Shown: positions 7,856 to 22,745 of the stretch, piece after piece | Numbering within the stretch: position 1 is the stretch's first letter | How the letters are laid out: each line of letters starts with the position of its first letter | DNA from: Verrucomicrobiota bacterium | GTDB lineage: Bacteria; Verrucomicrobiota; Verrucomicrobiia; Limisphaerales; UBA8199 | Direction: 5' to 3' | NCBI GenBank assembly: GCA_037130375.1 | Contig: JBAXTC010000001.1 | Coordinates: 1 to 63,654 of the forward strand | DNA length: 63,654 nt | Notes under the pieces: model-generated | What the model saw: only the letters and a program-made list of their open reading frames with translations | What the model was told of the DNA's origin: nothing | Databases searched by the model: none | Program-made: the position numbers and the translations under genes

Positions 7856-7911
7856 TTCACGCATCACGCATCACGCATCACGCATCACACATCACGCATC
7901 ACGCATCACGC
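7856..7911. repeat. Heptanucleotide tandem repeat (GCATCAC), about 8 units
   Basis: Read directly as 'gcatcac gcatcac gcatcac gcatcac acatcac gcatcac gcatcac gc', between the ccsB stop (7835) and the ccsA ATG (7935). Confidence 0.9.
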
Positions 7912-7934
7912 CCCGCCTCAAAAAGGACAATCTT

Positions 7935-10013
7935 ATGAACTGGCCGCTTAAACTCCTCCCCTGGTTTTTCGTCGCGCTCTTTGGCTGCGAAATCATCGCC
8001 GTGATGATGCCGAAGAAAGACGGCGAGTATCACGTCCGCGAATTCGGCCGGCTGCCGGTACTGCTCAATGGCCGCGTCCAGCCCTTCGATTCGGTGGCGC
8101 GCAATGCCCTGCTCCAAATCCGCAGCACCGGGGATGTGCCGCTCGAGCAGGTGCCGTCCTGGAAGTTCTGGCATCACCCAAAAAAGCTCAAAGCCTCCGA
8201 ATGGCTGCTCGAAGTCATGGCTCGGCCCGCTCTTGCCGACACCCGCCCGATCTTTCTTATCCATCACTCCGACCTCCTCGGGGAGTTGAAACTTCAGGAC
8301 AAAGGAGTCGAGAAGTCAGGCCTCCGCTATTTCACCTACAACGAGTTGAAACCCGTTGTCACCGAGATCTCCCAGCAAGGCCAAAAGTCCGCCCAGGTCA
8401 AGCCGGAGCAGCAAACCCCGTTTCAGAAGCAGGTCGCCAAGCTGGCCAATGCCATCATGCTCTACCATCGCCTTAAGGTCACGCTCCAGCCCGAAGGTGC
8501 GGATGACTTCACGCAAGAACTGGCTAACTTCCGGAAAAACCTGGGTCCCGCCCAAGTCGCTGCCCAGTCCAGCGAAAGCGAAAAGGATTTCAATAAGGAA
8601 GCTCTTCGTAAAATAGCGGGGCCGCTGGAAGAGTTCCAATTGATGGCGAATTATGGCTACCCGCTCATCGTCCCTCCGCTCGCGCCCGAGGCGGGCCGAG
8701 ATCGCTGGCAAAATGCTGGCACCAGCCTGCTCGAATGCGCCCGCACCGGCGAGTTTCATCCCGCGATGACCAACCTTGCCGCGATAGCGACGGCCTATCA
8801 TCAGAACAGGCCGGAGGACTTCAACGGCGCGGTGGCGGCTTACCGGCTTTGGCTGGCGCCCAAGTTCGCGAAGGAGCTAAGCAAAGGGGTGGCTGAGTTC
8901 TACTACAACGACGTGAAGTCTTTCCTGCACGCAACCATCATTTACATTTTTGCATTCGTGCTGGCCTGCACCGCCATCCTGACCTTCACCTTGACGCCGA
9001 ATCTCTCGGAATCCCTTCGCCGCTCGGCATTTTACCTCGTGGTGCTTGCGGGCGTCGTGCATACCTTCGGGCTGGTTTATCGCATGGTCCTGGAGGGGCG
9101 CCCGCCGGTGACCAACCTCTATTCTTCAGCCGTCTTCATTGGCTGGTCGGCGATGGTTCTGGGGATCATCCTGGAGCGGATTTACCGCATTGGCCTCGGC
9201 AGTTTGCTCGCCTCGCTGGCTGGCTTTGTCACGTTGCTCATCGCCCACAACCTCGCTTTGGGGGGCGATACCATGCAAATGTTGATGGCGGTTCTTGACA
9301 CTAATTTCTGGCTGGCCACGCATGTCGTCGTGATTACGCTGGGTTACGCTTCGACCTTCGCGGCCGGCTTGTTGGCCATCACCTACATTCTATTGGGGGT
9401 GTTTACTCCACTGTTGAAAGAGAAGATGGGAAACCGCGAAGCGGCGACCGCGGCTCCCGCAGGTCCGCGTGGCGCCAAAATGGTCGAGTCGGCATCGTTC
9501 GCCTCGAAGAGCGGCGCTCAAATCGAGCTGGGCAAGGCGTTGTCAAAAATGGTTTATGGCGTCGTTTGCTTTGCGACCCTCTTCAGCTTTGTCGGTACCG
9601 TCCTCGGCGGCATCTGGGCCGATCAATCCTGGGGCCGGTTCTGGGGTTGGGACCCCAAAGAAAATGGCGCGCTGCTCATCGTCCTCTGGAACGCCATCAT
9701 CCTCCACGCCCGCTGGGGCGGCATGGTGCGCGACCGTGGCATCATGAATTTAGCCGTGTTCGGCAATATCGTGACCAGTTTTTCGTGGTTTGGAGTGAAT
9801 ATGCTCGGCATCGGTCTGCACTCCTACGGTTTTATGGATGCGGCTTTCAAGTGGCTCATGCTGTTCATCGGCAGCCAGCTCTTCGTCATCGTCCTGGGCC
9901 TCCTGCCCCTGCGCCTGTGGCGCAGCTTCCGCACCGGTGACAAACTGCCCCCAACCGGTTCCGCCGCCCCTCTCGGTGGCAAGGCCCGAACCCCTGCGCC
10001 CGCCGGGGCATAG
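7935..10013 (+). CDS. ccsA: Cytochrome c assembly protein CcsA/ResC (long form)
   Basis: 692-aa polytopic membrane ORF. Tryptophan-rich haem-handling motif 'WADQSWGRFWGWDPKENGAL'. Confidence 0.9.
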   Translation: MNWPLKLLPWFFVALFGCEIIAVMMPKKDGEYHVREFGRLPVLLNGRVQPFDSVARNALLQIRSTGDVPLEQVPSWKFWHHPKKLKASEWLLEVMARPALADTRPIFLIHHSDLLGELKLQDKGVEKSGLRYFTYNELKPVVTEISQQGQKSAQVKPEQQTPFQKQVAKLANAIMLYHRLKVTLQPEGADDFTQELANFRKNLGPAQVAAQSSESEKDFNKEALRKIAGPLEEFQLMANYGYPLIVPPLAPEAGRDRWQNAGTSLLECARTGEFHPAMTNLAAIATAYHQNRPEDFNGAVAAYRLWLAPKFAKELSKGVAEFYYNDVKSFLHATIIYIFAFVLACTAILTFTLTPNLSESLRRSAFYLVVLAGVVHTFGLVYRMVLEGRPPVTNLYSSAVFIGWSAMVLGIILERIYRIGLGSLLASLAGFVTLLIAHNLALGGDTMQMLMAVLDTNFWLATHVVVITLGYASTFAAGLLAITYILLGVFTPLLKEKMGNREAATAAPAGPRGAKMVESASFASKSGAQIELGKALSKMVYGVVCFATLFSFVGTVLGGIWADQSWGRFWGWDPKENGALLIVLWNAIILHARWGGMVRDRGIMNLAVFGNIVTSFSWFGVNMLGIGLHSYGFMDAAFKWLMLFIGSQLFVIVLGLLPLRLWRSFRTGDKLPPTGSAAPLGGKARTPAPAGA

Positions 10014-10041
10014 TACCCGAAGCGCGACTGTAAACGGAGAT

Positions 10042-10072
10042 GGGGCCTGCGACGCGCTCCGCGTCAGGCCCC
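10042..10072. terminator. Strong GC hairpin between convergent genes (candidate bidirectional terminator)
   Basis: 'ggggcctgcgacgcg ctc cgcgtcaggcccc': near-perfect 14-15 bp stem with one bulge. Lies between the ccsA stop and the stop of the minus-strand flavoprotein gene. Confidence 0.6.
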
Positions 10073-10139
10073 GATAAGAGGCGGCCCATTATTCATGGCG
10101 GGCATCGAGATGGGATACAAGGGAATGGGTTACATGAGA

Positions 10140-12281
10140 TCACGCCAGGCGGCATCCAGCACAGCCGGCGCCTTTGAGCATGATCGCGCCGGTAGGACAC
10201 ACCTCGGCGGCGCGGCGGGCGGATTTCCGGAGGGCCTCAGCCATGGGTTTGTTGAAGGGCGTGGCTACGCTTACCTGAAATCCACGACCGATAAACGATA
10301 AACCCAGATCCTCGCCTGCTTGTGCCGCCACTTGCACGCAAGCGCCGCACATGATGCACTTGCCCGGCTCGAAGATAATGTCCGGGTGGGATGAGTCGCG
10401 GGCGAAGTAACGTCGTTCGCCGAAAAACCGCCCTGGGTCCACGCCGTATTCGGTCGCAAACTGGCGCAACCGGCAAGGGATCGACTTGCCGCAGCCGCAG
10501 CCGAGGCAGCGCCGAGACTCGCGTCTTGCAGCCTCCGGTGAAAACCCCAGCTCCACTTCGTCGAAGGTCGTCCGTCGCATCTCGATCGCCAGTTGCGGCA
10601 TGGGGGCGCGCGGGGCCTGCTCGATCCCGCGCAGGAAAACCGCCAGCTCGTCTTCGCTGAGTTTCCCCATAAGGACGTTCACCGACTCGGGCGCGCCGAT
10701 CACCTTCTTCCCATTCAGGTATTGGTCGAGAGCCGCTGCCGCAAGCTTGCCGGCGGCCACAGCTCGCACGGCAAGATCCGGGCCGGTCACCCCATCGCCA
10801 CCGGCAAAAACACCGGGAAGGTTGGTCGCTAGGGTCTTTGGGTCGGCCGCAATACCCCATTTAGACAAAGAAAGTCCGGCCGCATTCAGGCAGCTCAATT
10901 CCACATTCTGCCCAATGGCCGAAATCACCGAGGTGGCCTGCACTTCGAACTCCGAGCCGGGCATGGGCACCGGTCGGGCCCGCCCGCTTTCATCAGGCGG
11001 CCCGAGTTCCATTCGCTGGCAAGTCAGGCTCAACTTGCCCTCCTTTCGCTCCAGCCGCACGGGGGCGACGAGGAACTCAATCTTGACACCCTCGGCTTCC
11101 GCGGCTTCCACTTCCTCCATGAGACAAGGCATCTCCTGGCGGGTGCGACGGTAAAGCACCCGCACCGACTTTGCTCCCAACCGTACAGCGCAACGGCTGG
11201 CATCCATCGCGGTGTTGCCGCCGCCGACAACGATGGCATCGCTGCCCACGATTGGCGCCGGTCCGTCGGTGAGCTTTTCGAGAAACTCGAGTGCCGGGGT
11301 GGCCAGTTCTTCGCCACGGCAACCCAGACCGCGAGAACCCTGGGCTCCAATCGCCAGAAACACTCCGTCGAAGTCCCGCCGCAGTTCGTCCAGCGTGATG
11401 TCCCGGCCCAGCTTCTTCCCAAGGTGAAATTTGGCCCCCAACTCGCGTATCATCCCGATCTCCGCATCGAGCACCTGGCGCGGCAACCGAAACGCAGGTA
11501 TCCCATAGCGCAACATCCCACCCGGCTGCGGGTGCGCGTCAAATAGCACTGCGCCATGGCCTCGCCGAAGCAGGTGATGGGCTGCGGCAAGCCCCGCCGG
11601 ACCGGCCCCAACTATGGCTACCCGCTTGCCGGTCGCCGGAGTGAGTGGGACAGGCGTCCCGCCTGTCGCGTCGGGCGTCTCGCCCGCGTTAGCATGCTCG
11701 ATGGCGAGATGCCCTGGTGGCGGGAGGGACGCCCGCCCCACTACCTCGGGGCGCGCACGTTGATAATCGGCCACGAACCGATGAAGGTTGCGAATCGAGA
11801 GCGATTCCTCCACATCACATTGCCGGCAGCGCTCCTCGCAGAGCCTCGGACAGACTCGTCCCAGCGACGCTGGCAGCGTGAGATCGTCTGTCACGATGTC
11901 AGCGGATTTGCGGTGGTCGCCAGCGGCAATCTGTGCGATGAAGTTGGGGATATCCAGCCGGGCCGGGCAACCGGTTCGGCACGGCCCGACGCAGTCGCCC
12001 GCGTGGTCCGAGAGCAGGAGTTCCAGCGAGGTCTTGCGCGCCGCGCGAACCTCCTCCGAGTCATTAATCACGACCATCCCATCGGCTGCAGGCGTGGCGC
12101 AGGACGGCCATAAATTCGGCCGCCCCTCAATCTTAACTGCGCACAAAAAACACGAGGCGGACGGTTCAAAACCCTCGACGTGACAGAGCGTGGGGATGGA
12201 GATTCCCAGCTTGCGCGCAGCGCGGAGGATCGTGGTGCCGGCTGGGACTTCGATTGGACGGCTGTCGATGGTTAGGGTCAT
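10140..12281 (-). CDS. Multi-cluster Fe-S flavoprotein: NuoG/HydA-N-terminal-type Fe-S module with inserted GltD-like NAD(P)H/FAD oxidoreductase domain
   Basis: 713-aa ORF. 2Fe-2S cysteines at C33, C44, C47 and C61. 'SDHAGDCVGPCRTGC' and GltD-type 'RVCPRLCEERCRQC'. Dinucleotide folds 'VAIVGAGPAGLAAA' and 'VVGGGNTAMD', plus 'FAGGD'. C-terminal 'RRCLGCGCG...GKCIMCGACVQV...CPTGAI'. Confidence 0.85.
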   Translation of the reverse strand: MTLTIDSRPIEVPAGTTILRAARKLGISIPTLCHVEGFEPSASCFLCAVKIEGRPNLWPSCATPAADGMVVINDSEEVRAARKTSLELLLSDHAGDCVGPCRTGCPARLDIPNFIAQIAAGDHRKSADIVTDDLTLPASLGRVCPRLCEERCRQCDVEESLSIRNLHRFVADYQRARPEVVGRASLPPPGHLAIEHANAGETPDATGGTPVPLTPATGKRVAIVGAGPAGLAAAHHLLRRGHGAVLFDAHPQPGGMLRYGIPAFRLPRQVLDAEIGMIRELGAKFHLGKKLGRDITLDELRRDFDGVFLAIGAQGSRGLGCRGEELATPALEFLEKLTDGPAPIVGSDAIVVGGGNTAMDASRCAVRLGAKSVRVLYRRTRQEMPCLMEEVEAAEAEGVKIEFLVAPVRLERKEGKLSLTCQRMELGPPDESGRARPVPMPGSEFEVQATSVISAIGQNVELSCLNAAGLSLSKWGIAADPKTLATNLPGVFAGGDGVTGPDLAVRAVAAGKLAAAALDQYLNGKKVIGAPESVNVLMGKLSEDELAVFLRGIEQAPRAPMPQLAIEMRRTTFDEVELGFSPEAARRESRRCLGCGCGKSIPCRLRQFATEYGVDPGRFFGERRYFARDSSHPDIIFEPGKCIMCGACVQVAAQAGEDLGLSFIGRGFQVSVATPFNKPMAEALRKSARRAAEVCPTGAIMLKGAGCAGCRLA

Positions 12282-12310
12282 AGGAAATCCGAAGTCTCGA
12301 AAACCGAAAT

Positions 12311-12652
12311 CTGAAAACCGAAATCCGAAGGAAATCCGAAAACCGAAATCCGAAGCAATATTCGTGCATCAGCATCGTTATTTTCTCCAAATGCCAGAGA
12401 ACGCGAGCGATCTCCTCGCCAAACTGCCCCGTGCGTTCTTCCAATGCCCCGTGGCCAAGTCTTGCCTGCCTCATCCCCCGACTGAAAACCGAAATCCGAA
12501 GGAAATCCGAAAACCGAAATCCGAAGCAATATTCGTGCATCAGCATCGTTATTTTCTCCAAATGCCAGAGAACGCGAGCGATCTCCTCGCCAAACTGCCC
12601 CGTGCGTTCTTCCAATGCCCCGTGGCCAAGTCTTGCCTGCCTCATCCCCCCA
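12311..12652 (-). repeat. Tandem direct repeat, 2 x 171 bp (internally deleted 4HB gene units)
   Basis: 'ctgaaaaccg' at 12311 recurs at 12482, giving a 171-nt period. The units are near-identical by eye. Minus-strand reading: 'MRQARLGHGALEERTGQFGEEIARVLWHLEKITMLMHEYCFGF'. This is the 4HB N-terminus fused to the last codons and 3' tail of the gene. Confidence 0.85.
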
Positions 12653-12801
12653 CCTCCAGAACTCGAAGCCCTCGCATGGCGTTTCCTGGCACAATGTCCA
12701 TTCGGCCTTCGGATTTCGGATTTCCTTCGGTTTTCGGTTTTCGGTTTTCGGATTTAAGACGGTCATAGGAAATCCGAAGCAGTATTCGCGCATCAGCATC
12801 G

Positions 12802-13170
12802 TTATTTTCTCCAAATCGCGCCGAAAATGAGATTCAGCTCTTTGGCCTCGCGCCAGAGAACGCGAGCTTCGGCAGCCAGGTTTTCCTGTGCAGTAGCGAC
12901 CATGCGAAGGAAGAACATGGTTTCCCGAGACTCTTTGCGGCAAGTGCCAATCCGATGCTTGAAATCTTTCCCGGAAACAGAGTTGTCTGCCTCGCAGAAA
13001 TTCGCCCCCACGCTCGTTCCAGCGCCCACAAGCTGATCAATGAGTCGGTTGGTGACCGGATTCTGCGGGATCTTCTTCACAAACCGTATGATCGCCTCGC
13101 CAAACTGCGCCGTGCGTTCTTCCAAGCCCCGTGCCGGAGTCTTACCTGCCGCTCCTTCCCTCAGCGCCAT
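12802..13170 (-). CDS. Four-helix-bundle protein (23S rRNA intervening-sequence protein / Avd family)
   Basis: 122 aa from ATG 13170: 'MALREGAAGKTPARGLEERTAQFGEAIIRFVKKIPQNPVTNRLIDQLVGAGTSVGANFCEADNSVSGKDFKHRIGTCRKESRETMFFLRMV...LIFGAIWRK'. Typical length and motifs (GxSxGANxxEA, KDFxHxxxxxxKEsxET) for this family. Confidence 0.8.
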   Translation of the reverse strand: MALREGAAGKTPARGLEERTAQFGEAIIRFVKKIPQNPVTNRLIDQLVGAGTSVGANFCEADNSVSGKDFKHRIGTCRKESRETMFFLRMVATAQENLAAEARVLWREAKELNLIFGAIWRK

Positions 13171-13252
13171 CGGTTCCGTACCCACCTCATCCCCCCAGCT
13201 CCAGAACTCGAAGTCCTCGCATGACGTTTCCTGGCACATTGTCCGTTCGGCC

Positions 13253-13352
13253 TTCGGATTTCGGATTTCGGATTTCGGATTTAAGATAGTCATGGCAAAT
13301 CCGAAGTCTCGAAAACCGAAATCCGAAGGAAATCCGAAATCCGAAATCCGAA
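13253..13352. repeat. Inverted heptamer arrays able to form a long imperfect hairpin
   Basis: Left arm (TTCGGAT)n at 13253-13283 faces right arm (AAATCCG/AAAACCG)n at 13297-13352 across 'aagatagtcatggc'. Confidence 0.75.
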
Positions 13353-13374
13353 ACAGTATCCGTGCATCAGCATC

Positions 13375-13523
13375 GTTATTTTCTCTAAATCGCGCCGAAA
13401 ATGAGCTTTAGCCCTTTGGCATCGCACCAGAGAACGCGAGCAATCTTCTCGCCAAACTGCCCCGTGCGTTCTTCCAATGCCCCGTGCCGGAGTCTTGCCT
13501 GCCGCTCCTTCCCTCAGCGCCAT
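13375..13523 (-). pseudogene. Frameshifted, internally deleted four-helix-bundle gene copy
   Basis: Starts 'MALREGAAGKTPARG'. A 1-nt insertion follows (ggggcATTGGAAGAACGC versus ggggcTTGGAAGAACGC in the intact copy). The remnant reads 'LEERTGQFGEKIARVLW/CDAKGLKLIFGAI*', so the central helices are missing. Confidence 0.6.
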
Positions 13524-14004
13524 CAGTTCCGTGCCCACTTCATCTCCCCACCTCCAGAACTCGAAGCCCTCGCATGACATTTCCTCGCACAATGTCCGTT
13601 CGGCCTTCAGTTTTCGGATTTCCTTCGGTTTTCGGTTTTCGGATTTCGGATTTCCTCGTGCGTAACCTGCCGCTCCTTCCCTCAGCGCCATCAGTTCCGT
13701 ACCCACCTCATCCCCCCACCTCCAGAACTCGAAGCCCTCGCATGACATTTCCTCGCACAATGTCCGTTCGGCCTTCAGTTTTCGGATTTCCTTCGGTTTT
13801 CGGTTTTCGGATTTCGGATTTCCTCGTGCGTAACCTGCCGCTCCCTCCCTCAACGCCATCAGTTCCGTGCCTACCTCATCCCCCCACCTCCAAAATTCTA
13901 AGTCCTCACATGACATTTCCTCGCACAATGTCCGTTCGGCCTTCGGATTTCGGATTTCGGATTTCGGATTTCCGCCTTCGGTCTTCAGATTCCCTCGCGC
14001 GTAA
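13501..14004 (-). repeat. Tandem direct repeat, 3 x 168 bp (4HB 5' region + first 9 codons + heptamer array)
   Basis: 'gccgctcc' occurs at 13501, 13669 and 13837. Copies 1 and 2 differ at about 3 positions by eye; copy 3 is diverged. Each unit contains '...FEFWRWGDEVGTELMALREGAAG' on the minus strand. The array abuts the stop codon of the NuoEF gene. Confidence 0.85.
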
Positions 14005-14005
14005 T

Positions 14006-16444
14006 TCATACCACCTCCACAGCATCCTGCGGACAAACCTGCCGGCACGAATCGCACCGGGTGCATTTCTCCAAGTCAATCACATGCCGCGCGTAGGGCG
14101 TCATCGGGATCGCGTTGACCGGGCAATGCTGGGCGCAAATCGTGCAGCCGGTGCAGTTCTCGCGCACGCGATACTTGATGAGCGCCGTGCATTTTCCAGC
14201 CGGGCAACAACCCTGAAGATGCGCTTCGTATTCGTCGCGGAAATATCGCAGCGTGGTGAGCACCGGGTTGGGCGCGGTCTTGCCGAGTCCGCACAAACTT
14301 CCCTGGCTCACCTGCGGCGCCAGTTGCTCCAATTCCTGCAGGTGATGGCGGGTGGCTTTGCCTTTGCAGAGACGGTTGAGCAGCTCGAGCATCCGCTTGG
14401 TGCCGATGCGGCAGAAGGTGCATTTGCCGCAGGACTGGTTCTGAGTGAATTGGAGGAAATAACGGGCGATATCGACCATGCAGGCCGTGTCGTCCAGCAC
14501 CACCATGCCGCCCGAGCCCATGATCGCGCCGATGGCCCGCAGCGACTCGAAGTCCACCGGCGTGTCGGCCAGGCGCGCCGGCACACAACCGCCCGATGGC
14601 CCTCCGATCTGCACCGCCTTGAACTTTCGGCCGGCAGTCACTCCGCCACCAATCTCTTCAACGATCTGGCGGAGCGTCGTGCCCATCGGAATCTCGATCA
14701 GCCCGGCCCGGCGCACTTTGCCGGCCAGGGCGAACACCTTGGTGCCTTTGCTGGCCGCCGTACCGATGCTGGCGAATGCCTCCCCGCCGTGCCGGAGAAT
14801 CCAGGGCGTCATGGCCAGGGTTTCGACGTTGTTGATCAACGTAGGCTTGCCCCACAAACCGGATTGCGCCGGGAACGGCGGACGCAAGCGCGGCATGCCG
14901 CGGCGGCCTTCCACCGACGCAATCAGCGCCGTCTCCTCTCCGCATACGAAAGCACCCGCCCCTTCCTTGATCGTGATCCGCAATGGGTAATCACTTCCCA
15001 TGAGCCTTTTGCCCAGCCATCCGCGCAGCTCACACTCGGCGAGAGCGGCTCGCACACGCCACAATGCCTGCGGATATTCGTGGCGGATGTAGAAAACGGC
15101 TTCGTGCGCGCCCACCGCCACCGCGGCAATGGCCAGCCCTTCGATAACCCGATACGGGAAGGATTCGAGAATCATCCGATCCATGAACGCTCCCGGGTCG
15201 CCCTCATCGCCGTTGCAGATCACATATTTGATTGGCTCGGGCTGCTGGCGAACGATGCGCCATTTTTGTCCCGTGGGAAAGCCGGCGCCACCCCGGCCGC
15301 GCAGGCCGGATTGTTCCATAGTTTTGATGATGGCTTCGGGGGTGAACTTAGCGCAGGTTTCCAAAACTGCCGAGCCCTCCCCACTTTGAACTTCGGACTT
15401 CGCACTTCCCACTTCCAGGCAGCTCCTCAAGGCCACAAAGCCATCGTGAGCAAGGTATTCATCCAGGTCCAGAGGGTCGAGCCGCCCATAGTGCTCCATG
15501 GCGATGTGGACTTGCCGGCGGAAAAACTCGCGCTCTCCCGCAACATCCGCGCTCTGCATCCGGGTCGCGCCCGGAGTCGCCGAGGTCTCATCGTCCAGCA
15601 GCAATCCGTCCATCGCCCGTCTCCAGAGCTCTGACGCGCGCCGCACGAGGCCAACAGGGCGAAAATGCGACCGCACCAGATTGCCAACTTCGGCCAGCGC
15701 CAGCCCGGTGTAAGTCGCACTCGACTTGCCCGACGTAACAACCTCGACCATCGGCGTGAGATAGCAAGCCCCGACACAGCCGACACGCTTGACGGTAGCG
15801 TTCGCGCCGCTTGTCGCGACACTCTGCCGCAGAGCCTCGAACACGCGGTCGGTTCCTTTCGCCAAACAGCACGAGTCGAGGCAGACTTTGATCTCGGCGG
15901 CACCGGGGCTGGGAGCACGAGTGCCGGGCGGGGAATTCCAAGACGGCACGTTTGTTTCCGCACCAGACAAGTTCCGGCGGCTGGCCAGAAAGTCGCGGAT
16001 CGTGGCCGGCACCTTCTCGGCGGCCGCGTAACCAACGGTTTCTTCGCCAATCCGCACCACGGGAGCGAGGGTGCAGCACCCAAGGCAAGCGACGGGTTCG
16101 ATGGTGAATTGCCGATCGGCATCGGTGTCCGCGCCATCGGGAATGCGTAAATGACGGCGCAGGGCGTCTTCGACACGTTCGGCGCCTCCGACGTGGCAAG
16201 CCGTGCCATGACAGACATGCACGATATGTTCCCCCACAGGCTCGTGCCGGAACATGTCGTAGAAGGTTGAAACCCCGGCAAGGGCCGCGGGTGTGATTTG
16301 TGTCGCTGCGCAAATGCGTCGCAAGACCTCCTCCGGCAGGTAACCGTAATGATCCTGCATGGCCTGAAGAATCGGGATGACGGCATCGGGGCTGCGCCCA
16401 ATCCGTTCAACCGCCTCATCCACGAATCTCAGATCAATTGCCAT
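14006..16444 (-). CDS. NuoE-NuoF (HydC-HydB-type) fused NAD(H)-binding FMN/Fe-S flavoprotein
   Basis: 812 aa from ATG 16444 ('MAIDLRFVDEAVERIG'). NuoE-like 'CHGTACHVGG...CLGCCTLAPVV' and a second thioredoxin-like 2Fe-2S 'CLDSCCLAKG...CVGACYLTPMV'. NuoF core 'GLRGRGGAGFPTGQKW', 'ICNGDEGDPGAFMDR' and 'SCGKCTFCRIG'. Two C-terminal CxxCxxCxxxCP motifs. Confidence 0.9.
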   Translation of the reverse strand: MAIDLRFVDEAVERIGRSPDAVIPILQAMQDHYGYLPEEVLRRICAATQITPAALAGVSTFYDMFRHEPVGEHIVHVCHGTACHVGGAERVEDALRRHLRIPDGADTDADRQFTIEPVACLGCCTLAPVVRIGEETVGYAAAEKVPATIRDFLASRRNLSGAETNVPSWNSPPGTRAPSPGAAEIKVCLDSCCLAKGTDRVFEALRQSVATSGANATVKRVGCVGACYLTPMVEVVTSGKSSATYTGLALAEVGNLVRSHFRPVGLVRRASELWRRAMDGLLLDDETSATPGATRMQSADVAGEREFFRRQVHIAMEHYGRLDPLDLDEYLAHDGFVALRSCLEVGSAKSEVQSGEGSAVLETCAKFTPEAIIKTMEQSGLRGRGGAGFPTGQKWRIVRQQPEPIKYVICNGDEGDPGAFMDRMILESFPYRVIEGLAIAAVAVGAHEAVFYIRHEYPQALWRVRAALAECELRGWLGKRLMGSDYPLRITIKEGAGAFVCGEETALIASVEGRRGMPRLRPPFPAQSGLWGKPTLINNVETLAMTPWILRHGGEAFASIGTAASKGTKVFALAGKVRRAGLIEIPMGTTLRQIVEEIGGGVTAGRKFKAVQIGGPSGGCVPARLADTPVDFESLRAIGAIMGSGGMVVLDDTACMVDIARYFLQFTQNQSCGKCTFCRIGTKRMLELLNRLCKGKATRHHLQELEQLAPQVSQGSLCGLGKTAPNPVLTTLRYFRDEYEAHLQGCCPAGKCTALIKYRVRENCTGCTICAQHCPVNAIPMTPYARHVIDLEKCTRCDSCRQVCPQDAVEVV
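15383..15416. repeat. Heptamer-repeat-like segment inside the NuoEF coding sequence
   Basis: 'cttcggacttcgcacttcccacttcc' resembles the (GGACTTC)n arrays. It encodes '...GSAKSEVQSGEG...' in the linker just before the NuoF core. Confidence 0.55.
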
Positions 16445-16446
16445 GA

Positions 16447-16602
16447 CGTAAAACCCGAAACCCGAAACCCGCAACAAACTCAAAACACGCAGGCTCGAAT
16501 GTTCCCGGCCTCTTGGCGCTCGCTGGTATTGAATTTCGGATTTCAGTCATTCCAGTCATTCGGATTTCCTTCGGACTTCAGGTTTCGGACTTCGGATTTC
16601 CC
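16447..16602. repeat. Inverted heptamer arrays between the PQQ-like and NuoEF genes
   Basis: (CCCGAAA)3 at 16447-16470 faces (GGATTTC/GGACTTC/GGTTTC)n at 16531-16602. The latter array supplies the last codons of the upstream gene. Confidence 0.8.
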
Positions 16603-18313
16603 CAACACACCACATATTCGTCACCCCGCGCATATAGAGCTTATCTGCTGCGAACGCCGGGCTGGCGTGGAATGCATCGCCCATTTCCGTCCGGAACAGC
16701 TCTTTGAACTGCCGCGCGGCTTCGACCACAACCGCCGTTCCCTTCTGGCTGAGCAGGTAAAGCCGCTTCCCGGCCAGGATCGGCGACGCGTGGCATTCCA
16801 TGTCGAAGTCATGTTCCCAGAGTTTCTTCCCGTCTTTGGCGTCGTAACACGTCAGCATGCCCGAGGTGGTGACAGAAAAAACCAGCTCGCCGTTGCTGGT
16901 TGGACTGGTTACGTCCGGAATGTTGTCTTCGTTGGTCCACGCAACATGGGTCTTGGTGACGTCGCCTTGCCCGTCCGGCCGAATCGCCAGCAACTTCTCT
17001 GACGGGCTGGCCACGAACAGCATTCCGCCGGCGAAGACCGGTGACGGAGTGATTTCACCATTGAGACAGGTCACCCGCCAAAGCTCCACGCCATTAGTGG
17101 CGGCGTAGGCGATCACCCACGGCACGGCGAGCACAACCACCTGGGCTTTGCCGGCAGCCTCGTAAACAATGGGCGAGGCCCAGGATCTGCCCACCTTGCG
17201 CGGGCGCTCCCAGACGGTTCGACCGGTGCGCCCGTCCAGCGCGTAGAGCTTCGATTTGCCTTCATCAGGATCACCCTGGTCGAGCTGCACGATCAACCGG
17301 TCCCGCCAGGTCGCCAGCGACGTGGCGGCTCCATAGGGATTCTTTAAGACGCCAAAACTCTTTGACCAAACCGGCTTCCCATCCAGAGTGAATGCGACGC
17401 AGTCGCCATTCGCAAAAAACGCATACACCCGCCGACCATCCGTCGCCATCGTCGATGCGGCGTAACCTGTGGACTCGGGAATATCCGCTCCCTGCACTGT
17501 GCCCGGAACATTCGTCACCGCCTGCCGCCAGAGCGTTTGACCTGTCTTGGCGTCCAGACAAAAAACCTCGCGCAGGTTCGTGTTGCCGCCCGAAAAGAAG
17601 ACACGGTCCCCCCAGACAATCGGCGAATTGAAACCACCGGCTGGCACGGGAACCTTCCAGGCAATCCCCACGCCAGTCTTCGTATCCCAACTCACGGGCG
17701 CATTGGTTGCGCCTGACACGCCGCCTCCGTCCACTCCGCGAAAACAAGGCCAGTTTGCTCTGAGTTCTTCAACCGAGGCAGCATCCGTGGACATCACGGA
17801 ACCAGCCGAGCCTAACATCTTTTCCGCATCTGCCGGAGCTTTTGGCAAAGCCGTGCTCAGCCCAAGACTCAGAATAAAAAGAAACGTGCCGATCACCCCG
17901 CCGCTGGCCGCCACCGACCAGCGGGCCGTAGCCGCCCCGCAAGCGGTCGATTCCGCGCCATCCGGTTTGGGTCCGGGTGACGGCAGCCGCCTCCGATGAC
18001 GAGCGCTCTGTGTGGCAGCCAGCACAAACACGGCAACTCCACCAAGCAACAAATAGACCCCCGATCCCATCTGCGACAATTGGCGGAAATACTGTTGGCG
18101 GAGCTGCAAATCGAGGGCCCGAATCCGCTCCTTCATCTGTTCATCCGCCGGGTTTAGCCGGAGCTTTTCTTTGTACTCTTTGAGCAACGGCGATTTGAGC
18201 GGATCCTCGGCCCGCGTGCCGAAGTGGCCAACGACCATCGCTACGCCGGCCAATAGCGAGAAGACCCCGGCAATCCACGCCGTCAGCCGCCAGGTGGAGT
18301 TGGTGTTACTCAT
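16556..18313 (-). CDS. Membrane-anchored PQQ-like (BamB-type) beta-propeller repeat protein
   Basis: 585-aa ORF with three N-terminal hydrophobic helices. These are followed by repeated 'VFCLDAKTGQTLW', 'LYALDGRTGRTVW', 'VIAYAATNGVELW' and 'MLTCYDAKDGKKLW' blades. The start overlaps the upstream stop by 8 nt. Confidence 0.75.
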   Translation of the reverse strand: MSNTNSTWRLTAWIAGVFSLLAGVAMVVGHFGTRAEDPLKSPLLKEYKEKLRLNPADEQMKERIRALDLQLRQQYFRQLSQMGSGVYLLLGGVAVFVLAATQSARHRRRLPSPGPKPDGAESTACGAATARWSVAASGGVIGTFLFILSLGLSTALPKAPADAEKMLGSAGSVMSTDAASVEELRANWPCFRGVDGGGVSGATNAPVSWDTKTGVGIAWKVPVPAGGFNSPIVWGDRVFFSGGNTNLREVFCLDAKTGQTLWRQAVTNVPGTVQGADIPESTGYAASTMATDGRRVYAFFANGDCVAFTLDGKPVWSKSFGVLKNPYGAATSLATWRDRLIVQLDQGDPDEGKSKLYALDGRTGRTVWERPRKVGRSWASPIVYEAAGKAQVVVLAVPWVIAYAATNGVELWRVTCLNGEITPSPVFAGGMLFVASPSEKLLAIRPDGQGDVTKTHVAWTNEDNIPDVTSPTSNGELVFSVTTSGMLTCYDAKDGKKLWEHDFDMECHASPILAGKRLYLLSQKGTAVVVEAARQFKELFRTEMGDAFHASPAFAADKLYMRGVTNMWCVGEIRSPKPEVRRKSE

Positions 18314-19691
18314 TCAATGCCTTTGCCGGTTGAAGGTTGGCAGCGGGCATCATGCCGCGCCGCACTAATTCGTTCGGACAATACTCGAAGCATCGCGCGC
18401 AGGCGAAACAATCGCCGCGATCCGGCTCGTAATCGGTTCGCTTGCGGCGCAACGAGAGACTGATCAATTTCACGCCGATCACCAGCCCGGCCCACATCCC
18501 GAAAATCGTGGCCCCCGCGACGAACCGTTCCCGAATGCGCCCCGCCTCGGTGAGAATCTCCTGCGGTGTCTGGCGGGCGCGTTCCAGCGCCAGCTCATCT
18601 GGTGACAGCGCGCCAAACTTGAGAGCGGTTCCCTGCGCCCGCACGAACTGCTCCGCAAGGCTAACCGTCGGATTGAGCTTGGATGCCACCGGGCCAAATC
18701 GCCATCCCAGCCAGCCGCCGCCGGCGATAAGCACGGGAAGCAGCGCCAGCAGCAGCGCCAGCCGCCGGCGGTCTCCGGTGAGAGCCTGCGGCGACGCCCC
18801 GCCGGTTGCGGGCTCGCGCATCGCGCCAAACGGACACGAAGCTTCGCATAACCGGCATTGCGTGCAATAATCCGGCGTTACCCGGACGCGCCATTTCGCA
18901 ACCGTCGCGCCCAGTTTCAACAGCGCTCCATAAGGACAGAGAAACCGGCAGTAGGGCCGGCCTACGAAGACCCCCAGCAGGAGCAGCGCCACCCCGGACA
19001 GCACCATCAACGTCCGCCCGCTCATCCGAAAAATGGGCACGAATGGATCGTATTGGCAGATAATAAATGCGCTGCCGGTCGCCGCAAACAGCACGCCCGC
19101 GCCCAGGTAAATGTAAGGCAGCACACTCAACCCCTGCTCAAGCCACAACGGCACCTTCAACGGCTTCAATAACACCAGATCCTGCAGCGCGCCATGCGGG
19201 CAGACCCCGGCGCAAAAAGTCCGCCCGGCAAAGAGCGCAAAGACCAGGGGCAGCACGAAGAAAGCGACCACGCCAACGGGAACGGCATACTCCCGATCAA
19301 ACACCGCAAGCGCGACGTTTTGCACCGAGCCAATCGCGCAGACACACCCTTTTCGCCAGAATCCGAAATACACCAGTGAAAAAATCGAAAGCGCCATCAC
19401 GCCGTTGCGCGAACGCCGCTTGAATACCAGCCAGCTTGACACCCCCAGGCAGACCGCCAACACCACAACATCGAGATATTGAAAAAACAGCGCCCGCGCC
19501 GCTGGGGTCGTCGTGACCGGAAGCTGATGTCCACTCTCAAATTCCGGCGGTGGAAAACGCTGCTCTGCGATGGCAATGCTGGAAAGAAAGGCAAAAAACA
19601 ACAGCGGACCGAGCATCCAGACCAACCCGCTCCACAAGCCGGCCGTCGCGCTCTGGACTTCGGACTTCGGACTTCGGACTTCGGGTCTCAT
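18306..19691 (-). CDS. NapH/MauN/NosR-type membrane polyferredoxin
   Basis: 461 aa from ATG 19691, which overlaps the upstream stop (ATGA). Multiple TM helices. Two CxxxCP loops, 'GRTFCAGVCPHGALQD' and 'GRPYCRFLCPYGALLK'. Two 4Fe-4S motifs, 'CTQCRLCEASCP' and 'CFACARCFEYCP'. Confidence 0.75.
   Translation of the reverse strand: MRPEVRSPKSEVQSATAGLWSGLVWMLGPLLFFAFLSSIAIAEQRFPPPEFESGHQLPVTTTPAARALFFQYLDVVVLAVCLGVSSWLVFKRRSRNGVMALSIFSLVYFGFWRKGCVCAIGSVQNVALAVFDREYAVPVGVVAFFVLPLVFALFAGRTFCAGVCPHGALQDLVLLKPLKVPLWLEQGLSVLPYIYLGAGVLFAATGSAFIICQYDPFVPIFRMSGRTLMVLSGVALLLLGVFVGRPYCRFLCPYGALLKLGATVAKWRVRVTPDYCTQCRLCEASCPFGAMREPATGGASPQALTGDRRRLALLLALLPVLIAGGGWLGWRFGPVASKLNPTVSLAEQFVRAQGTALKFGALSPDELALERARQTPQEILTEAGRIRERFVAGATIFGMWAGLVIGVKLISLSLRRKRTDYEPDRGDCFACARCFEYCPNELVRRGMMPAANLQPAKALNE
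19655..19688. repeat. (GGACTTC)x4 heptamer array inside the first 15 codons of the NapH-like gene
   Basis: 'ggacttcggacttcggacttcggacttcgggtctc' encodes 'MRPEVRSPKSEVQSA' on the minus strand. Confidence 0.85.
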
Positions 19692-20260
19692 GTTCCGTGG
19701 ATCGTCGTCTTCAGCAAATACGGCTGATCTGCCGGCACGCGGCGGAAGGCATCTCCGGCGCAAACTTTCGAAATGGCGCATTCGTTGCAATTCACGCAGC
19801 GGTCGTGACGCACTTGCAGAAACAGCGAGCCGTTGCCGAAACGATTGCAGCCTTCGACACACTTGGCGCACCCGATGCAGAGTTGCTCGTCAATCGTGTA
19901 TTCGTAATACGGATCCTCGACAAACGTGCGCTTGATCGCAGAAGTAGGGCACAGGCAATTCTCCGCGCCGGTGTTCAGGTCGTTGGGCTCCGGATCGAAG
20001 TAGCCCGTGCAAAGCTGGCAATAACCGCAGATCGCAAAGGAATGAACACACTTGACCGCGGATTGCTCGAGCACGCAATTCGTCGCGCAATTGCCGCAGC
20101 GCACGCATTTCTGAGGATCGATTTGCCAAACGGCCCCTTTGGCGGTGGCGCGGCCCGCCACCACCCCCAGCAAACCTCCCAGCCCCGTCAGCGCCGCCGC
20201 CCGCGCGCCGTCGCGCAGAAACTGGCGGCGGCTAACATTTGGCTCAGGTTTGGAATCCAT
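19688..20260 (-). CDS. Tat-exported NapG-like 4x[4Fe-4S] ferredoxin
   Basis: 190-aa ORF with twin-arginine signal 'SRRQFLRDGARAAALTGLG'. Four Cys clusters: 'CVRCGNCATNC', 'CGYCQLCTG', 'CIGCAKCVEGC' and 'CVNCNECAISKVC'. Confidence 0.8.
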   Translation of the reverse strand: MDSKPEPNVSRRQFLRDGARAAALTGLGGLLGVVAGRATAKGAVWQIDPQKCVRCGNCATNCVLEQSAVKCVHSFAICGYCQLCTGYFDPEPNDLNTGAENCLCPTSAIKRTFVEDPYYEYTIDEQLCIGCAKCVEGCNRFGNGSLFLQVRHDRCVNCNECAISKVCAGDAFRRVPADQPYLLKTTIHGT

Positions 20261-20269
20261 CTGCGGCCC

Positions 20270-21340
20270 TTAAGCGCTGGGCTTGGTTGCTGGCGTTGCT
20301 GCCGTCTCTTTCTTTTTCGCCATCACGCGGACCTCGCCGGTAACGAGATCGAGAATGTATATGCGCTGTTGCGAATCCACCGCGGCATCCAAACCGCCCA
20401 TCGTGCAGTCCGCCGGGGAACACTTGTGCCAATTCTCTGTGAACGACTCCGGCCCGGCAACCACGCATTCGAAGGTTCCGTCGCCGGAGTAAACCTTCAC
20501 CCGGGGCAGACCCTTTTCGCACGTAACACAACGACCGTCCGGCAGCAGGGCCAGACCGACCGGGTTGCAGCACCCGCAGAAGCCCTGGATCGCGCCGGAA
20601 GGCTTGCCCCAAAAGAATTCCAGGTCACCACCCGCGGTGTAGCCTTCCACCCGATGCCGCCCCGGATTGTTGACCCGCACTAGCCCGTCGCGACCCAGTT
20701 CCACATCGAGGTAGGGGCTGGGCACGATCAGACCGGGAACGTTGCGGTCCTTGTTCTTCTCGGCGATACGGCCAGCCAGCTTGCCGGATTTATCGTACCG
20801 CAGCACCACCCGGTTCCCCGCATCAGCCGCAAAGACGTCATTCTCCCCCACCGCCAGCCCCGTAAACCAAGTCCGCTTGCCGGGCGATTCCCAGGCCGCG
20901 GTTCGCTGGCCTTTGCGATCAAACACCTCCAGATGGTCCTTCAGCCCCGCATAAATAGTTCCGTCGCCTGCCACAGCGACACAACGCGCCGAACCGGCAA
21001 GCGCAATCTCATTGACCCTCGCCCCCTGGCGGTCCAGCACGCTCACGTAGTTGCCCGCAGCAACATACACTTGATTCTCCGGCCCGATCGCAATCCGGTG
21101 CGGCTCCGGTTGCGAGGTGGGAAAACGGCCCACTTGTTCGTAATGGATCAGCTTCGGGTCGGTCTGGCGCAACCGCTCCACGTCGTACGCAAATGGGTTG
21201 GCTTCCTTGCCCGCGCTGCCCGCGCCTGCCCGTCGCGTCGAAGCCACCACAGCGGCGCTGCCCACGGCGAGAACTCCGGCGCTGCGCGCGCTTTTCTGGA
21301 TGAAGTGGCGTCGGGTAATGGGTCGGTTCTGGTTTCTCAT
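20270..21340 (-). CDS. Tat-signal NHL/six-bladed beta-propeller protein with Cys-rich C-terminal blades
   Basis: 356 aa from ATG 21340 ('MRNQNRPITRRHFIQKSARSAGVLAVG'). NHL-like repeats ('VYVAAGNYVSVLD', 'DVFAADAGNRVVLRYD'). Cys cluster 'GFCGCCNPVG...GRCVTCEKG...FECVV...CSPADC'. Confidence 0.7.
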   Translation of the reverse strand: MRNQNRPITRRHFIQKSARSAGVLAVGSAAVVASTRRAGAGSAGKEANPFAYDVERLRQTDPKLIHYEQVGRFPTSQPEPHRIAIGPENQVYVAAGNYVSVLDRQGARVNEIALAGSARCVAVAGDGTIYAGLKDHLEVFDRKGQRTAAWESPGKRTWFTGLAVGENDVFAADAGNRVVLRYDKSGKLAGRIAEKNKDRNVPGLIVPSPYLDVELGRDGLVRVNNPGRHRVEGYTAGGDLEFFWGKPSGAIQGFCGCCNPVGLALLPDGRCVTCEKGLPRVKVYSGDGTFECVVAGPESFTENWHKCSPADCTMGGLDAAVDSQQRIYILDLVTGEVRVMAKKKETAATPATKPSA

Positions 21341-21348
21341 GGTCAACC

Positions 21349-21570
21349 TCAATGTTGAGCGTATTTTGCGGAAAGTGCCGGCGGCAGGCCGCAACTGGCA
21401 AAGACACCGCAGCCGCTGCAGATGCCGCGATTCACGCAGCTTTGGCGCGACGACATTCGGCGGCGCATCGCCAGGCCGCCCGCGGCGGTCAGCAGCGTCA
21501 GCAGACCATAGCGCGCCGCAGCACGAACAAACTCGCGCCGGCTTTCAACCTTTTCAGGCGAAAATTGCAT
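21349..21570 (-). CDS. Small (73 aa) twin-arginine-signal protein with CX5CX2CX5C tail
   Basis: 'MQFSPEKVESRREFVRAAARYGLLTLLTAAGGLAM...SCVNRGICSGCGVFASCGLP'. Ends 8 nt before the NHL gene start, with GAGG in the spacer. No family recognised. Confidence 0.5.
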   Translation of the reverse strand: MQFSPEKVESRREFVRAAARYGLLTLLTAAGGLAMRRRMSSRQSCVNRGICSGCGVFASCGLPPALSAKYAQH

Positions 21571-21750
21571 AGCGATGTGGCTGAAATATAACGGAAAAAG
21601 GATTCCCTGCCACAGCAAAAGCAGCTACATCCGTTTTGCCAAACACCAACCCTATTTTGTCCGCCCGATGGCTGAATCTGTCAGATCCCGAACCGGCCTC
21701 TTACCTCGCTGAAAAGTTCGCGCATATCGCCGTGGACACCCTCCTCTCCC

Positions 21751-22557
21751 TTACTTCTTATAAGTTGTTCCTTCTGCGATCCAGGTAATGTCCCGCTTGT
21801 CCGAGCCGGTGTCCATCGGAATGCCGTCCACGTTCCCCATAACCGGTCGTTTTGTTACTGTAGCCATCCATTTCTTGATTTCGGCGTGGCCGTCGGCGAA
21901 CGAGAAGCCGCAAGCGCCGTTGTGATAGGAAGCTGGAATGTCACACCAGGTCCACCGCTCGCTTGGGTCGGCACTGGTACACCAAACGTACCAACCGTCG
22001 TTAATGCTGTCGGGATGTTCATCCAAGGTGACAAAGATGGCGGAAGGAGTTCTGAAGCTGCTGCCCTTTATGAACTGCTGCCAGATGTAGTTGATCGGCG
22101 TTCCCTTGTCGTCCTGTGGACCGACAAATGCGTTCATGGAAATGCTCCTCGCTCGCGGTCCCAGTGGACACGGCTTTTGATCGGCTGGACATTTATAAAT
22201 GCCAGTGTTCTTGGCAACATAAGGCCCCAACAGCGCCCCTTTTATTAGATCCAGGTTCGTGTTTTGTGAATCGGCACCCCAACTAATAACGTTACCCACC
22301 CAGTTATTGCTGGGATTGCCTTGCGTGCCCAGGATAGTTCTGTTGTTGACCAAGCGATCGTTGAAGTCATCGGCATACATACGCCAGGCCAGTATGAGCT
22401 GTTTGTTGTTGTTCAGGCACATGATGCCCTGCGCTTTGGTCTTGGCCTTGGCCAGCGCAGGCAACAATAGCGCAGCCAGAATGGCAATGATTGCAATGAC
22501 GACGAGCAGTTCAATCAGGGTGAACGCTCCATTCTTGCAACGAAGAAGAAATCTCAT
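21751..22557 (-). CDS. Prepilin-type N-terminal methylation domain / DUF1559 H-X9-DG protein
   Basis: 268 aa from ATG 22557. '[33 protein letters not shown]', 'IYKCPAD', and C-terminal '[13 protein letters not shown]' (H-X9-DG). Confidence 0.9.
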
Positions 22558-22745
22558 CCTTACGGACCGTGCTGCAAAACGAGAGTTCTCAAAAAGCTCA
22601 GGGTGGCTCAGCATATCGCTTTAAGTGGTTCAGCCCATTGAACAGGCCAGCACCCCGGGGATAACGCGCGGCGTCTCCACCGGCTTTGCCGCAGGCCACT
22701 GGGCCGTTGGCTCCGCCGGCGAGACGCCGCCGTCTTACAGCGGGA

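Follow-up and report, generated by a model that had tools for sequence, protein, structure and literature searches.

Bifurcating enzymes of the Bfu family are built on a BfuBC core, which holds flavin mononucleotide (FMN) as well as the iron-sulfur (Fe-S) clusters B1 and C1, together with the sites B2 to B5 that are absent in non-bifurcating NuoF homologues (PMC9304861, PMC11829005). Solved members include NfnABC of Caldicellulosiruptor (9BOV/9BP5), an NfnAB entry (9N5U) and StnABC of Sporomusa (8OH5) (PMC11829005, PMC10482914), in which the StnC/NfnA subunit carries an inactive, molybdopterin-fold NuoG/FdhF-like C-terminal domain with further clusters and tetramer contacts (PMC10482914). NapGH-type modules are described as quinol dehydrogenases (PMC5449189, PMC5928378). 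The clusters of NapH are cytoplasmic and the protein binds the periplasmic NapG, the role of its CX3CP motifs being unknown (PMC5449189, PMC5928378), and the NapH of Wolinella also contacts the cytoplasmic Fe-S protein NapF (PMC5928378). Relatives of both kinds of module are encoded side by side in a cluster of seven genes, A to G, in a 63,654-nt stretch of DNA (hereafter the window) of a Verrucomicrobiota bacterium (GCA_037130375.1, contig JBAXTC010000001.1, positions 1-63,654). We suggest, with a probability of about 0.55, that A to G encode one membrane-spanning electron-transfer complex, directing electrons outward from NAD(P)H to a periplasmic acceptor. The cluster is a new combination of known modules with a new terminal protein family, that of B, and is not categorically new; a literature search which included the Bfu survey and its supplement yielded no description of it.

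Conservation of the gene cluster in Verrucomicrobiota and Planctomycetota

A set of 33 loci was assembled from a scan of a genome collection with B, from B homologues located on long contigs and from tblastn searches with all window proteins. The gene order (A)-B-C-D-E-F-G is repeated in Verrucomicrobiota and in five Planctomycetota lineages, usually with gaps or overlaps of 0-8 nt. In the Verrucomicrobiota loci B shares 59-75% amino acid identity with the window copy, while the Planctomycetota loci (Pirellulales, Thermogutta, a metagenome-assembled genome (MAG) labelled Blastopirellula, and Sedimentisphaerales) show 37-50% identity to the window. A Phycisphaerae contig (L023) harbors B-A-C-D and ends inside D. 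F is specified as a NuoE-NuoF fusion at every locus that has it; F directly follows E in 22/23 independent loci with DNA extending past E, and G follows F in every locus whose contig goes on. Several junctions are tight: E and F overlap by 4 nt in L003, L029 and L032, the spacing of F and G is 1-4 nt in L020, L021, L029, L032 and L033, whose counterpart in L031 is a 4-nt overlap, and D and E overlap or abut in L020, L021 and L013. The flanking genes differ from locus to locus, and include a cytochrome oxidase (COX) operon, CNNM transporters, FtsK, ABC transporters, glycosidases and others, and all-against-all clustering of the loci identified no further conserved flanking gene. Furthermore, divergence from the window copy is correlated across loci among the six larger proteins (r = 0.87-0.97). 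As judged from gene order and divergence, the seven genes clearly constitute one conserved operon-type unit.

According to the record titles, many of the carrier MAGs were recovered where conditions are anoxic and reduced, for example in peat, in digesters, in a sulfidic cave and in a meromictic lake. The B family has so far been found only in records affiliated with the Planctomycetota-Verrucomicrobiota-Chlamydiota (PVC) bacteria. One record labelled as Candidatus Acidoferrum of the Acidobacteriota (L007; DATKNZ010000092.1) harbors a cluster 72-92% identical to the Verrucomicrobial copies; as it is so close to these, the contig is probably mis-binned and would not place the cluster outside the PVC bacteria. 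Two loci encode tandem paralogues of B (L019, positions 10001-12019; L022, positions 1919-3457), which are 48% and 35-42% identical to the window protein, respectively, with A next in L019.

In the window all seven genes are located on the minus strand (Table 1). An earlier note on this DNA had placed seven open reading frames (ORFs) here, and their coordinates and translations agree with ours, as do the recomputed junctions: gaps of 8 nt (A/B) and 9 nt (B/C), an ATGA overlap (C/D) and an 8-nt overlap (D/E). The note had counted nine genes; seven stand as the core, and the remainder are a four-helix-bundle (4HB) gene and truncated copies in the F-G spacer. Likewise, its description of the last two junctions as filled by repeats only holds for the heptamers between E and F, whereas the F-G spacer contains an intact 4HB ORF (12802-13293). 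Profile searches against Pfam and NCBIfam bore out all of its domain calls, and its observation that heme c motifs are lacking was repeated in our search, where CxxCH occurs in 0/7 products. The cluster encodes neither NapA/B nor NosZ, and it has no gene for a methylamine dehydrogenase, a cytochrome c or an FMN-binding domain. A 461-aa product identical to D exists in public gene calls (P0430). For F, a start at the ATG at 16444 (812 aa) is more likely than at the TTG.

Table 1. Positions of the core genes and of other features of the cluster; positions are those of the window unless another locus is given
Feature	Locus	Position	Strand	Description
A	window	21349-21570	-	73 aa; small protein with twin-arginine translocation (Tat) motif (SRREF), C-terminal C-x6-C-x2-C-x5-C
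B	window	20270-21340	-	356 aa; exported six-bladed NHL beta-propeller, Tat motif TRRHF
C	window	19688-20260	-	190 aa; Tat-exported NapG-like polyferredoxin
D	window	18306-19691	-	461 aa; NapH/NosR-type integral membrane polyferredoxin
E	window	16556-18313	-	585 aa; three N-terminal transmembrane (TM) helices and PQQ_2/BamB-like propeller
F	window	14006-16483	-	NuoE-NuoF fusion, 825 aa from TTG
G	window	10140-12281	-	713 aa; BfuA/StnC-like Fe-S flavoprotein
Repeat nest with 4HB ORF (outside the core)	window	12282-14005	-	inserted between F and G
Sigma-70-like promoter match	window	21585-21613	-	just upstream of A; weak, sole match on the operon strand
Second PQQ_2 propeller	L029	8555-9967		
Second PQQ_2 propeller	L031	8553-9959		
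Second PQQ_2 propeller	L032	8484-9875		
Second PQQ_2 propeller	L033	8459-9895		
Second PQQ_2 propeller	L020, L022, L025, L027			

Cytoplasmic, membrane and periplasmic proteins of the cluster

The translated product of F begins with a 2Fe-2S_thioredx/NuoE domain (residues 22-164; 171 bits; NF005722: 148.4 vs a cut-off of 141). Pfam places 2Fe-2S_thioredx in two stretches of the protein, followed by Complex1_51K (152.8 bits), NADH_4Fe-4S (112 bits) and a C-terminal dicluster. Its motifs comprise C91/96/133/137, C201/205/236/240 in the second 2Fe-2S_thioredx stretch and GRGGAGF at 396, and in the C-terminal part C685/688/691, C759/760/765 after the B1 motif, and CxxCxxCxxxCP at 777 and 807. A NuoE-like BfuC with the C1 [2Fe-2S] cluster is here fused to BfuB. 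F furthermore contains a NuoF-like BfuB, in which the B1 [4Fe-4S] cluster adjoins the site for FMN and NAD(H). The extra sites of BfuB are present at the motif level only, as the C-terminal B3/B4 dicluster, the B2 (Zn) site and an N-terminal, thioredoxin-like B5. The solved structures matched by F are 9bov_B (e-value: 5.9e-201), 9n5u_B (e-value: 1.2e-200) and 8oh5_B (e-value: 5e-198), and F residues 196-822 form a full-length alignment with the bifurcating HydB (7t2r_B). F is thus predicted to be a fused BfuC and BfuB, equivalent to HydC and HydB or to StnA and StnB, with all the metal sites of the Bfu type.

G combines an N-terminal [2Fe-2S] domain (Fer2_4), a two-cluster domain (Fer4_20), a GltD-type flavin adenine dinucleotide (FAD) domain (Pyr_redox_2) and NuoG-type Fer4_Nqo3, with GAGPAG at 225 and GGGNTAMD at 353, the latter in the NAD(P)H domain. 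It matches 9bov_A (e-value: 4.4e-166), 8oh5_C (e-value: 2.2e-153) and 9N5U (e-value: 3.8e-152); residues 211-703 align to 185-674 of the 1172-aa StnC (8oh5_C), and G covers 184-672 of the 1178-aa 9bov_A. The FdhF-like C-terminal domain of Stn/Nfn is absent, as G ends at residue 713. The NADP(H) domain of Stn/Nfn is present in the window protein and missing in L016, L017, L020, L021 and L026. In these five aligned orthologues a NAD(P)H Rossmann domain of ~150 residues has been deleted, while the FAD and all Fe-S motifs are kept, and the length of the short G proteins of L029 and L031-L033 (519-548 aa) fits the same deletion. The NADPH domain is found only in the Verrucomicrobial clade of the window and is deleted in Planctomycete and some Verrucomicrobial orthologues. 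Since this domain is lost where the FAD and Fe-S motifs are retained, neither NADPH oxidation nor transhydrogenation can be the conserved role of G, which would be that of a wire. By their motifs and best structural matches, F and G are placed in the Bfu family, closest to Stn/Nfn.

C matches the Fer4 families of Pfam, and the NapG model NF007012 only weakly (16.3 bits vs a cut-off of 269). Its twin-arginine (RR) signal and 17 of its 18 Cys residues are invariant among 23 orthologues, and the latter would be enough for four [4Fe-4S] clusters. C appears to have the architecture of NapG without being an equivalog. D contains two Fer4_5 domains, CX3CP motifs at C160/C164 (CAGVCP) and C248/C252 (CRFLCP), and CxxCxxCxxxCP at 276-287 and 428-439, the second of these behind two extra helices. 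All CX3CP and cluster-motif Cys residues are invariant in 20 orthologues, as are three additional residues, C116, C118 and C212, predicted near the outer face. D thus possesses the membrane module of the NapH/MauN type, with two CX3CP motifs and two [4Fe-4S] motifs predicted to be cytoplasmic. NapH/MauN is also its best family, at scores below the cut-offs (TIGR02163: 48.7 vs 213 bits; NF007013: 46.5 vs 234 bits). In place of the four TM helices of this family, hydropathy and the helix pattern of an AlphaFold2 model indicate seven or eight hydrophobic helices in D; the model is of low confidence, and therefore only the helix count was used from it. A sequence search of D against the PDB returned nothing at E<0.01.

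The propeller of E matches the PQQ_2/BamB repeat of Pfam (105.9 bits), and its scores for the pyrroloquinoline quinone (PQQ)-dependent dehydrogenase models remain far below the cut-offs (TIGR03075: 49.5 vs 480; TIGR03074: 28.9 vs 832). In 20 orthologues the charge bias is net +4.7 for loop 2 and -1.4 for the flank following TM3, and on this basis the propeller is predicted to face the periplasm. The invariant residues of E are mostly structural Trp and Asp as used in propeller docking, rather than a catalytic set, and include no Cys/His cluster; an extracytoplasmic helix motif (R65, D68, R72) is conserved beside the 3-TM anchor. As such, E is probably a BamB-type scaffold rather than a PQQ enzyme. 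Planctomycete loci contain an eighth gene directly upstream of B, which encodes another, N-terminally anchored PQQ_2/BamB-like propeller (~465 aa; Table 1). In L028 (6240-8690) a single 816-aa ORF (P0185) joins this upstream propeller to the NHL propeller B through a hydrophobic segment. It may be a read-through artefact on one metagenome contig; should it be genuine, either its two propellers would be separated by the membrane or the segment between them would not be membrane-spanning. P0185 was considered as a Rosetta stone and kept only as a hint, given that it occurs on a single contig and that its topology is made contradictory by the hydrophobic segment between the domains.

B is a six-bladed NHL propeller, as is evident from its Pfam match (NHL: 25 bits vs a cut-off of 20) and from a confident AlphaFold2 model (predicted local distance difference test score (pLDDT): 93). 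The top Foldseek matches of the model are generic NHL domains (Thin, TRIM2/3/71, Brat, PknD; TM-score <=0.84 normalised by target length), and no match to an enzyme subfamily or cofactor family was found in Pfam, NCBIfam or, with Foldseek, the PDB. The family comprises at least 921 clusters at 50% identity (E<1e-30), annotated in the sources only as 'hypothetical protein'. The sole invariant polar centre is F-x-G256-C257-C258-N259-P260, together with D173, E275 and K276; the Cys pair often forms part of C-G-C-C, and the alignment contains no conserved His. The B proteins of the Planctomycete loci carry a signal anchor of the Sec type where the window protein has its Tat motif, and cytoplasmic insertion of a cofactor is therefore probably not required for B. 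We consider B the candidate terminal subunit, whether catalytic or substrate-binding.

A has no family match in Pfam or NCBIfam. Its RR motif and all four Cys residues are kept in 19 aligned orthologues, with the motif also present in L028, L030, L032 and L033, making A a candidate peptide for a single Fe-S cluster. RR signals are found on A and C in all lineages where these proteins are present. A methylamine dehydrogenase-like reading was rejected, as mature A contains no Trp, B is a six-bladed NHL rather than a seven-bladed propeller, and no Mau family matches were obtained.

A candidate electron conduit across the membrane

From the domains and motifs, the conserved operon and the closest relatives we infer the assembly, the direction of electron flow, the chemistry of B and a periplasmic substrate. 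F and G would form a Bfu module of the Stn/NfnABC type, in which the FMN of F exchanges electrons with NAD(H), the FAD of G does so with NADP(H) in the clade of the window, and the C-terminal dicluster of F probably does so with ferredoxin. Much like NapF on NapH, the Fe-S chain of F and G would attach to D at the [4Fe-4S] clusters of its cytoplasmic side, with no soluble catalytic end domain. D would conduct the electrons through its CX3CP-containing membrane module, possibly via C116, C118 and C212 at the outer face, and deliver them to C, to A where present, and thence to B, with E as the membrane-anchored, BamB-like scaffold of the periplasmic part. The redox site of B would be its vicinal Cys pair, working by dithiol/disulfide or thiolate-metal chemistry. 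A periplasmic acceptor would in this manner be reduced by NAD(P)H, alone or together with reduced ferredoxin, and would represent the third substrate in Bfu terms; disulfides, sulfur species, metalloids and metals are all candidates for it. Outward flow is the most likely direction, because the membrane potential would assist it, because heterotrophs of the anoxic habitats in which most carrier MAGs were found have to dispose of NAD(P)H and reduced ferredoxin, and because B has no cofactor suited to the oxidation of a low-potential donor.

The proposal of a trans-membrane conduit linking NAD(P)H and ferredoxin to periplasmic propellers was already made in the earlier note, and comparative genomics, through synteny and the closest relatives, lends it support. 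Among the findings that, according to the note, would speak against it are two, that the NuoEF/GltD pair is never syntenic with the Tat/NapGH-like genes and that the propellers match well-characterised enzymes. The E-F adjacency in 22/23 loci disposes of the first, and neither B nor E has a match of the second kind. The resemblance to Stn/Nfn (Bfu) that the note saw in F and G is likewise upheld, with StnABC and NfnABC as the best solved matches.

Several points weigh against a single complex. Given that NapGH-type modules are quinol dehydrogenases (PMC5449189, PMC5928378), A to E could run on quinol without F and G, and the Stn/Nfn relatives of the latter are self-sufficient, soluble enzymes (PMC10482914, PMC11829005). 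One locus, L018 (9989-15176), is the sole exception to the E-F adjacency; here B-A-C-D-E is followed by unrelated ORFs, with no F or G in the next 6 kb. In the window itself, the E-F and F-G junctions are broken by repeats of 111 nt and 1.7 kb, respectively, which makes co-transcription here less certain. The electron path across the membrane in NapH-type proteins is unknown, and the AlphaFold2 model of D, built with an alignment of homologues of >=70% identity, is poor (pLDDT: 59.5). L017 and L029 have no A between B and C, and A is as such dispensable in some lineages. Finally, the Sec-type anchor of B in Planctomycetes argues against a pre-inserted cofactor and is compatible with more than one chemistry of B.

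The relatives' behavior, the L018 locus and the repeat-filled junctions would all fit an arrangement of two independent neighbours, with A to E forming a quinol-dependent module of the NapGH/NosGH type, in which D is the quinol dehydrogenase, and F and G a soluble transhydrogenase of the Stn/Nfn type. We regard this as unlikely. Independent systems would not be expected to show the E-F adjacency of 22/23 loci across two phyla amid unconserved flanks, with stop/start overlaps between E and F, nor a NuoE-NuoF fusion that is specific to the cluster and constant in it. A Planctomycete G without the NAD(P)H domain cannot be a transhydrogenase, and G always lacks the FdhF-like domain, which provides a tetramer contact in StnC (PMC10482914).

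The invariant vicinal Cys of B, often within C-G-C-C, resemble metal-thiolate or dithiol motifs, and could be read as a binding site in metal handling (reduction of Cu(II) to Cu(I) as by CcoG, or of Hg, As or Se) or in DsbD-like thiol maintenance, for example for cytochrome c maturation. D belongs to a superfamily which we take to include the cupric reductase CcoG, and some loci have neighbouring genes for heme/copper oxidases or cytochrome c biogenesis (ResB/CcsA in the window, COX/CtaA in L001 and L002). Such a role is nevertheless quite improbable, as these neighbours are not conserved at other loci, no metallochaperone or thioredoxin-fold gene occurs in the cluster, and an assembly factor would hardly seem to need an NADH module that is competent for bifurcation and holds ~15 Fe-S clusters.

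Least probable is that the same wire runs inward, a periplasmic donor being oxidised at B or the propellers, its electrons passing by way of C and D to G and F, and the Bfu core bifurcating them to ferredoxin and NAD+ (with NADP+ as a further acceptor in the clade of the window), which would amount to a hydrogenase-like input from the periplasm that involves no hydrogenase: the complete set of bifurcation sites kept in F and the anoxic, reduced habitats of many host MAGs would suit it, but electrons would have to move against the membrane potential, B has no conserved ligands for a metal or organic cofactor except its two Cys, and we know of no thiol-based periplasmic donor low enough (~-400 mV) for bifurcation to ferredoxin. 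Bfu enzymes are themselves reversible, and in most of the described members BfuA is where electrons enter from a third substrate of mid potential (PMC9304861), which is in keeping with an inward direction.

Proteins of the NapH/NosR/RdhC type are widespread, and the role of their clusters and CX3CP motifs is unresolved; the operon offers a testable NAD(P)H/ferredoxin donor. More tentatively, and on balance doubtfully, the complex could be the first Bfu enzyme wired across the cytoplasmic membrane, coupling NADH and ferredoxin, and NADPH in some clades, to a cofactor-less Cys-Cys NHL enzyme; NapH/NosR-type proteins would then for the first time have a defined redox partner in the cytoplasm for the Fe-S clusters on that side. 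The Bfu core is known to carry many catalytic modules, and a periplasm-facing form would extend bifurcation and confurcation to extracytoplasmic chemistry. B in turn represents a sizeable unexplored family in abundant PVC bacteria of peat, sediment, groundwater and digesters, and in these habitats the compound on which it acts could be an electron sink that has gone unrecognised, or a target of detoxification.

Repeats, neighbouring genes and comparison with described systems

The 4HB ORF in the F-G spacer encodes a member of the 23S-IVS protein family (TIGR02436: 48.8 bits vs a cut-off of 24) and is bordered by (GAAATCC)n/(GGATTTC)n heptamer arrays. The spacer further contains tandem units of 168 bp (x2.7) upstream of this ORF and of 171 bp (x2.0; copies 100% identical) downstream, both of which look like partial or internally deleted copies of the 4HB element. 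A 4HB gene is located at the same junction in eight related Verrucomicrobial loci (L001-L003, L005, L006, L008, L012 and L015), with 62-76% amino acid identity among the genes within one Verrucomicrobial clade, and is absent from it in L011, L013, L014, L016, L017 and all Planctomycete loci. The element may be a proliferating or recombining cassette. As the gene order is conserved and compact in other loci, the repeat-filled junctions of the window represent a lineage-specific intrusion into an old operon. An RNase III-type stem formed by the inverted heptamer arrays around the 4HB ORF was rejected, the minimum free energy of 12760-13300 being no better than that of shuffled sequences (z=+1.25).

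The E-F spacer of the window is made up of 72-111 nt of heptamer repeats, within which no terminator-like site was found. Across the whole region 14 such sites were counted vs 14.3 expected from shuffles, and sigma-70-like promoter matches numbered 3 vs 2.9 by chance, that upstream of A being only suggestive by position. Heptamer repeats at 19655-19684 run into the N-terminus of D (RPEVRSPKSEVQS), those at 16570-16600 run into the C-terminus of E (EIRSPKPEVRRKSE), and a further array is located just upstream of F (16451-16475). The arrays at the coding ends of D and E therefore reshape protein termini inside the operon.

Genes for ResB-like and CcsA-like proteins of System II cytochrome c biogenesis (6468-10013, plus strand) converge on G, and a TCACGCA heptamer (x7.9) is located between them at 7857-7911. 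Neighbours such as ResB/CcsA (window), COX/CtaA (L001, L002) and a URO-D-like gene (L028) might suggest a conserved link to heme or cytochrome biogenesis. This was discarded, as tblastn with these neighbours against all loci gave matches only in near-identical contigs. At 203-5079 (plus strand) a ResIII-helicase-like ORF of 936 aa is followed by an N6/N4 DNA methylase ORF of 689 aa, and the pair constitutes a probable Type III-like restriction-modification system. ORFs with a prepilin-type N-terminal methylation motif, a kind of protein highly multiplied in PVC genomes, are located immediately upstream of the operon (21751-22614, minus strand) and at 29476-30375 (plus strand). Two very large ORFs are also encoded on the minus strand, at 45859-52368 (2169 aa) and 52537-55695 (1052 aa).

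With regard to described systems, E resembles the BamB/PQQ_2 propellers in its PQQ_2 match (106 bits), as does the upstream paralogue of Planctomycetes. It differs from PQQ-dependent dehydrogenases in scoring below the family cut-offs, in its conserved 3-TM anchor and in having no conserved Cys-Cys or metal ligands. For B, a possible analogy in mode of working is provided by ferredoxin:thioredoxin reductase and heterodisulfide reductase, in which Fe-S clusters reduce a nearby disulfide, and by DsbD, which passes cytoplasmic reductant to periplasmic thiols. There is, however, no relation in sequence or fold to these systems, B being an NHL propeller, and no CCG, thioredoxin or DsbD domain was detected.

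D shares with NapGH, NosGH and MauMN, as well as with NosR and RdhC, the two CX3CP motifs and two ferredoxin-type cluster motifs, while C is, as in NapGH, NosGH and MauMN, a Tat-exported ferredoxin, with Cys residues that would suffice for four clusters, whose gene is located immediately upstream of D with a stop/start overlap. Unlike in these systems, C and D fall far below the curated cut-offs (NapH: 48.7 vs 213; NapG: 16.3 vs 269), and D has about four more helices, a displaced second cluster motif and three further invariant Cys. Furthermore, no known terminal reductase is encoded beside C and D, in contrast to NapGH and NosGH.

In common with StnABC/NfnABC, F spans the whole of StnB/NfnB (e-values of ~1e-198 to 1e-201) and has a NuoE/HydC-like N-terminal part, and C1, B1, the B2 site, B3, B4 and B5 are all present in it as motifs. 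G matches StnC/NfnA over the [2Fe-2S], Fer4_20, GltD-type FAD/NADPH and NuoG-type cluster regions (e-values of 1e-152 to 1e-166). In contrast to StnABC/NfnABC, the C and B subunits are fused in F, G stops before the ~500-aa FdhF-like domain, the NAD(P)H domain has been lost from Planctomycete and some Verrucomicrobial G proteins, and the genes always share their operon with those for exported proteins and for a polyferredoxin of the membrane. The hosts also differ, being PVC bacteria rather than Firmicutes and Thermococci.

A Bfu enzyme bound to the membrane by a NapH-type protein is not among the types listed in the main text and one supplementary file of the Bfu survey (PMC9304861). The nearest parallel is offered by the predicted Nuo-Bfu and Mbh-Bfu (PMC9304861), in which, as would be the case here, a BfuBC core and a BfuA wire are set on membrane subunits that handle the third substrate. 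The partner in this cluster is, however, a NapH-type polyferredoxin instead of the antiporter-like subunits of complex I or Mbh, and the endpoint would be situated in the periplasm.

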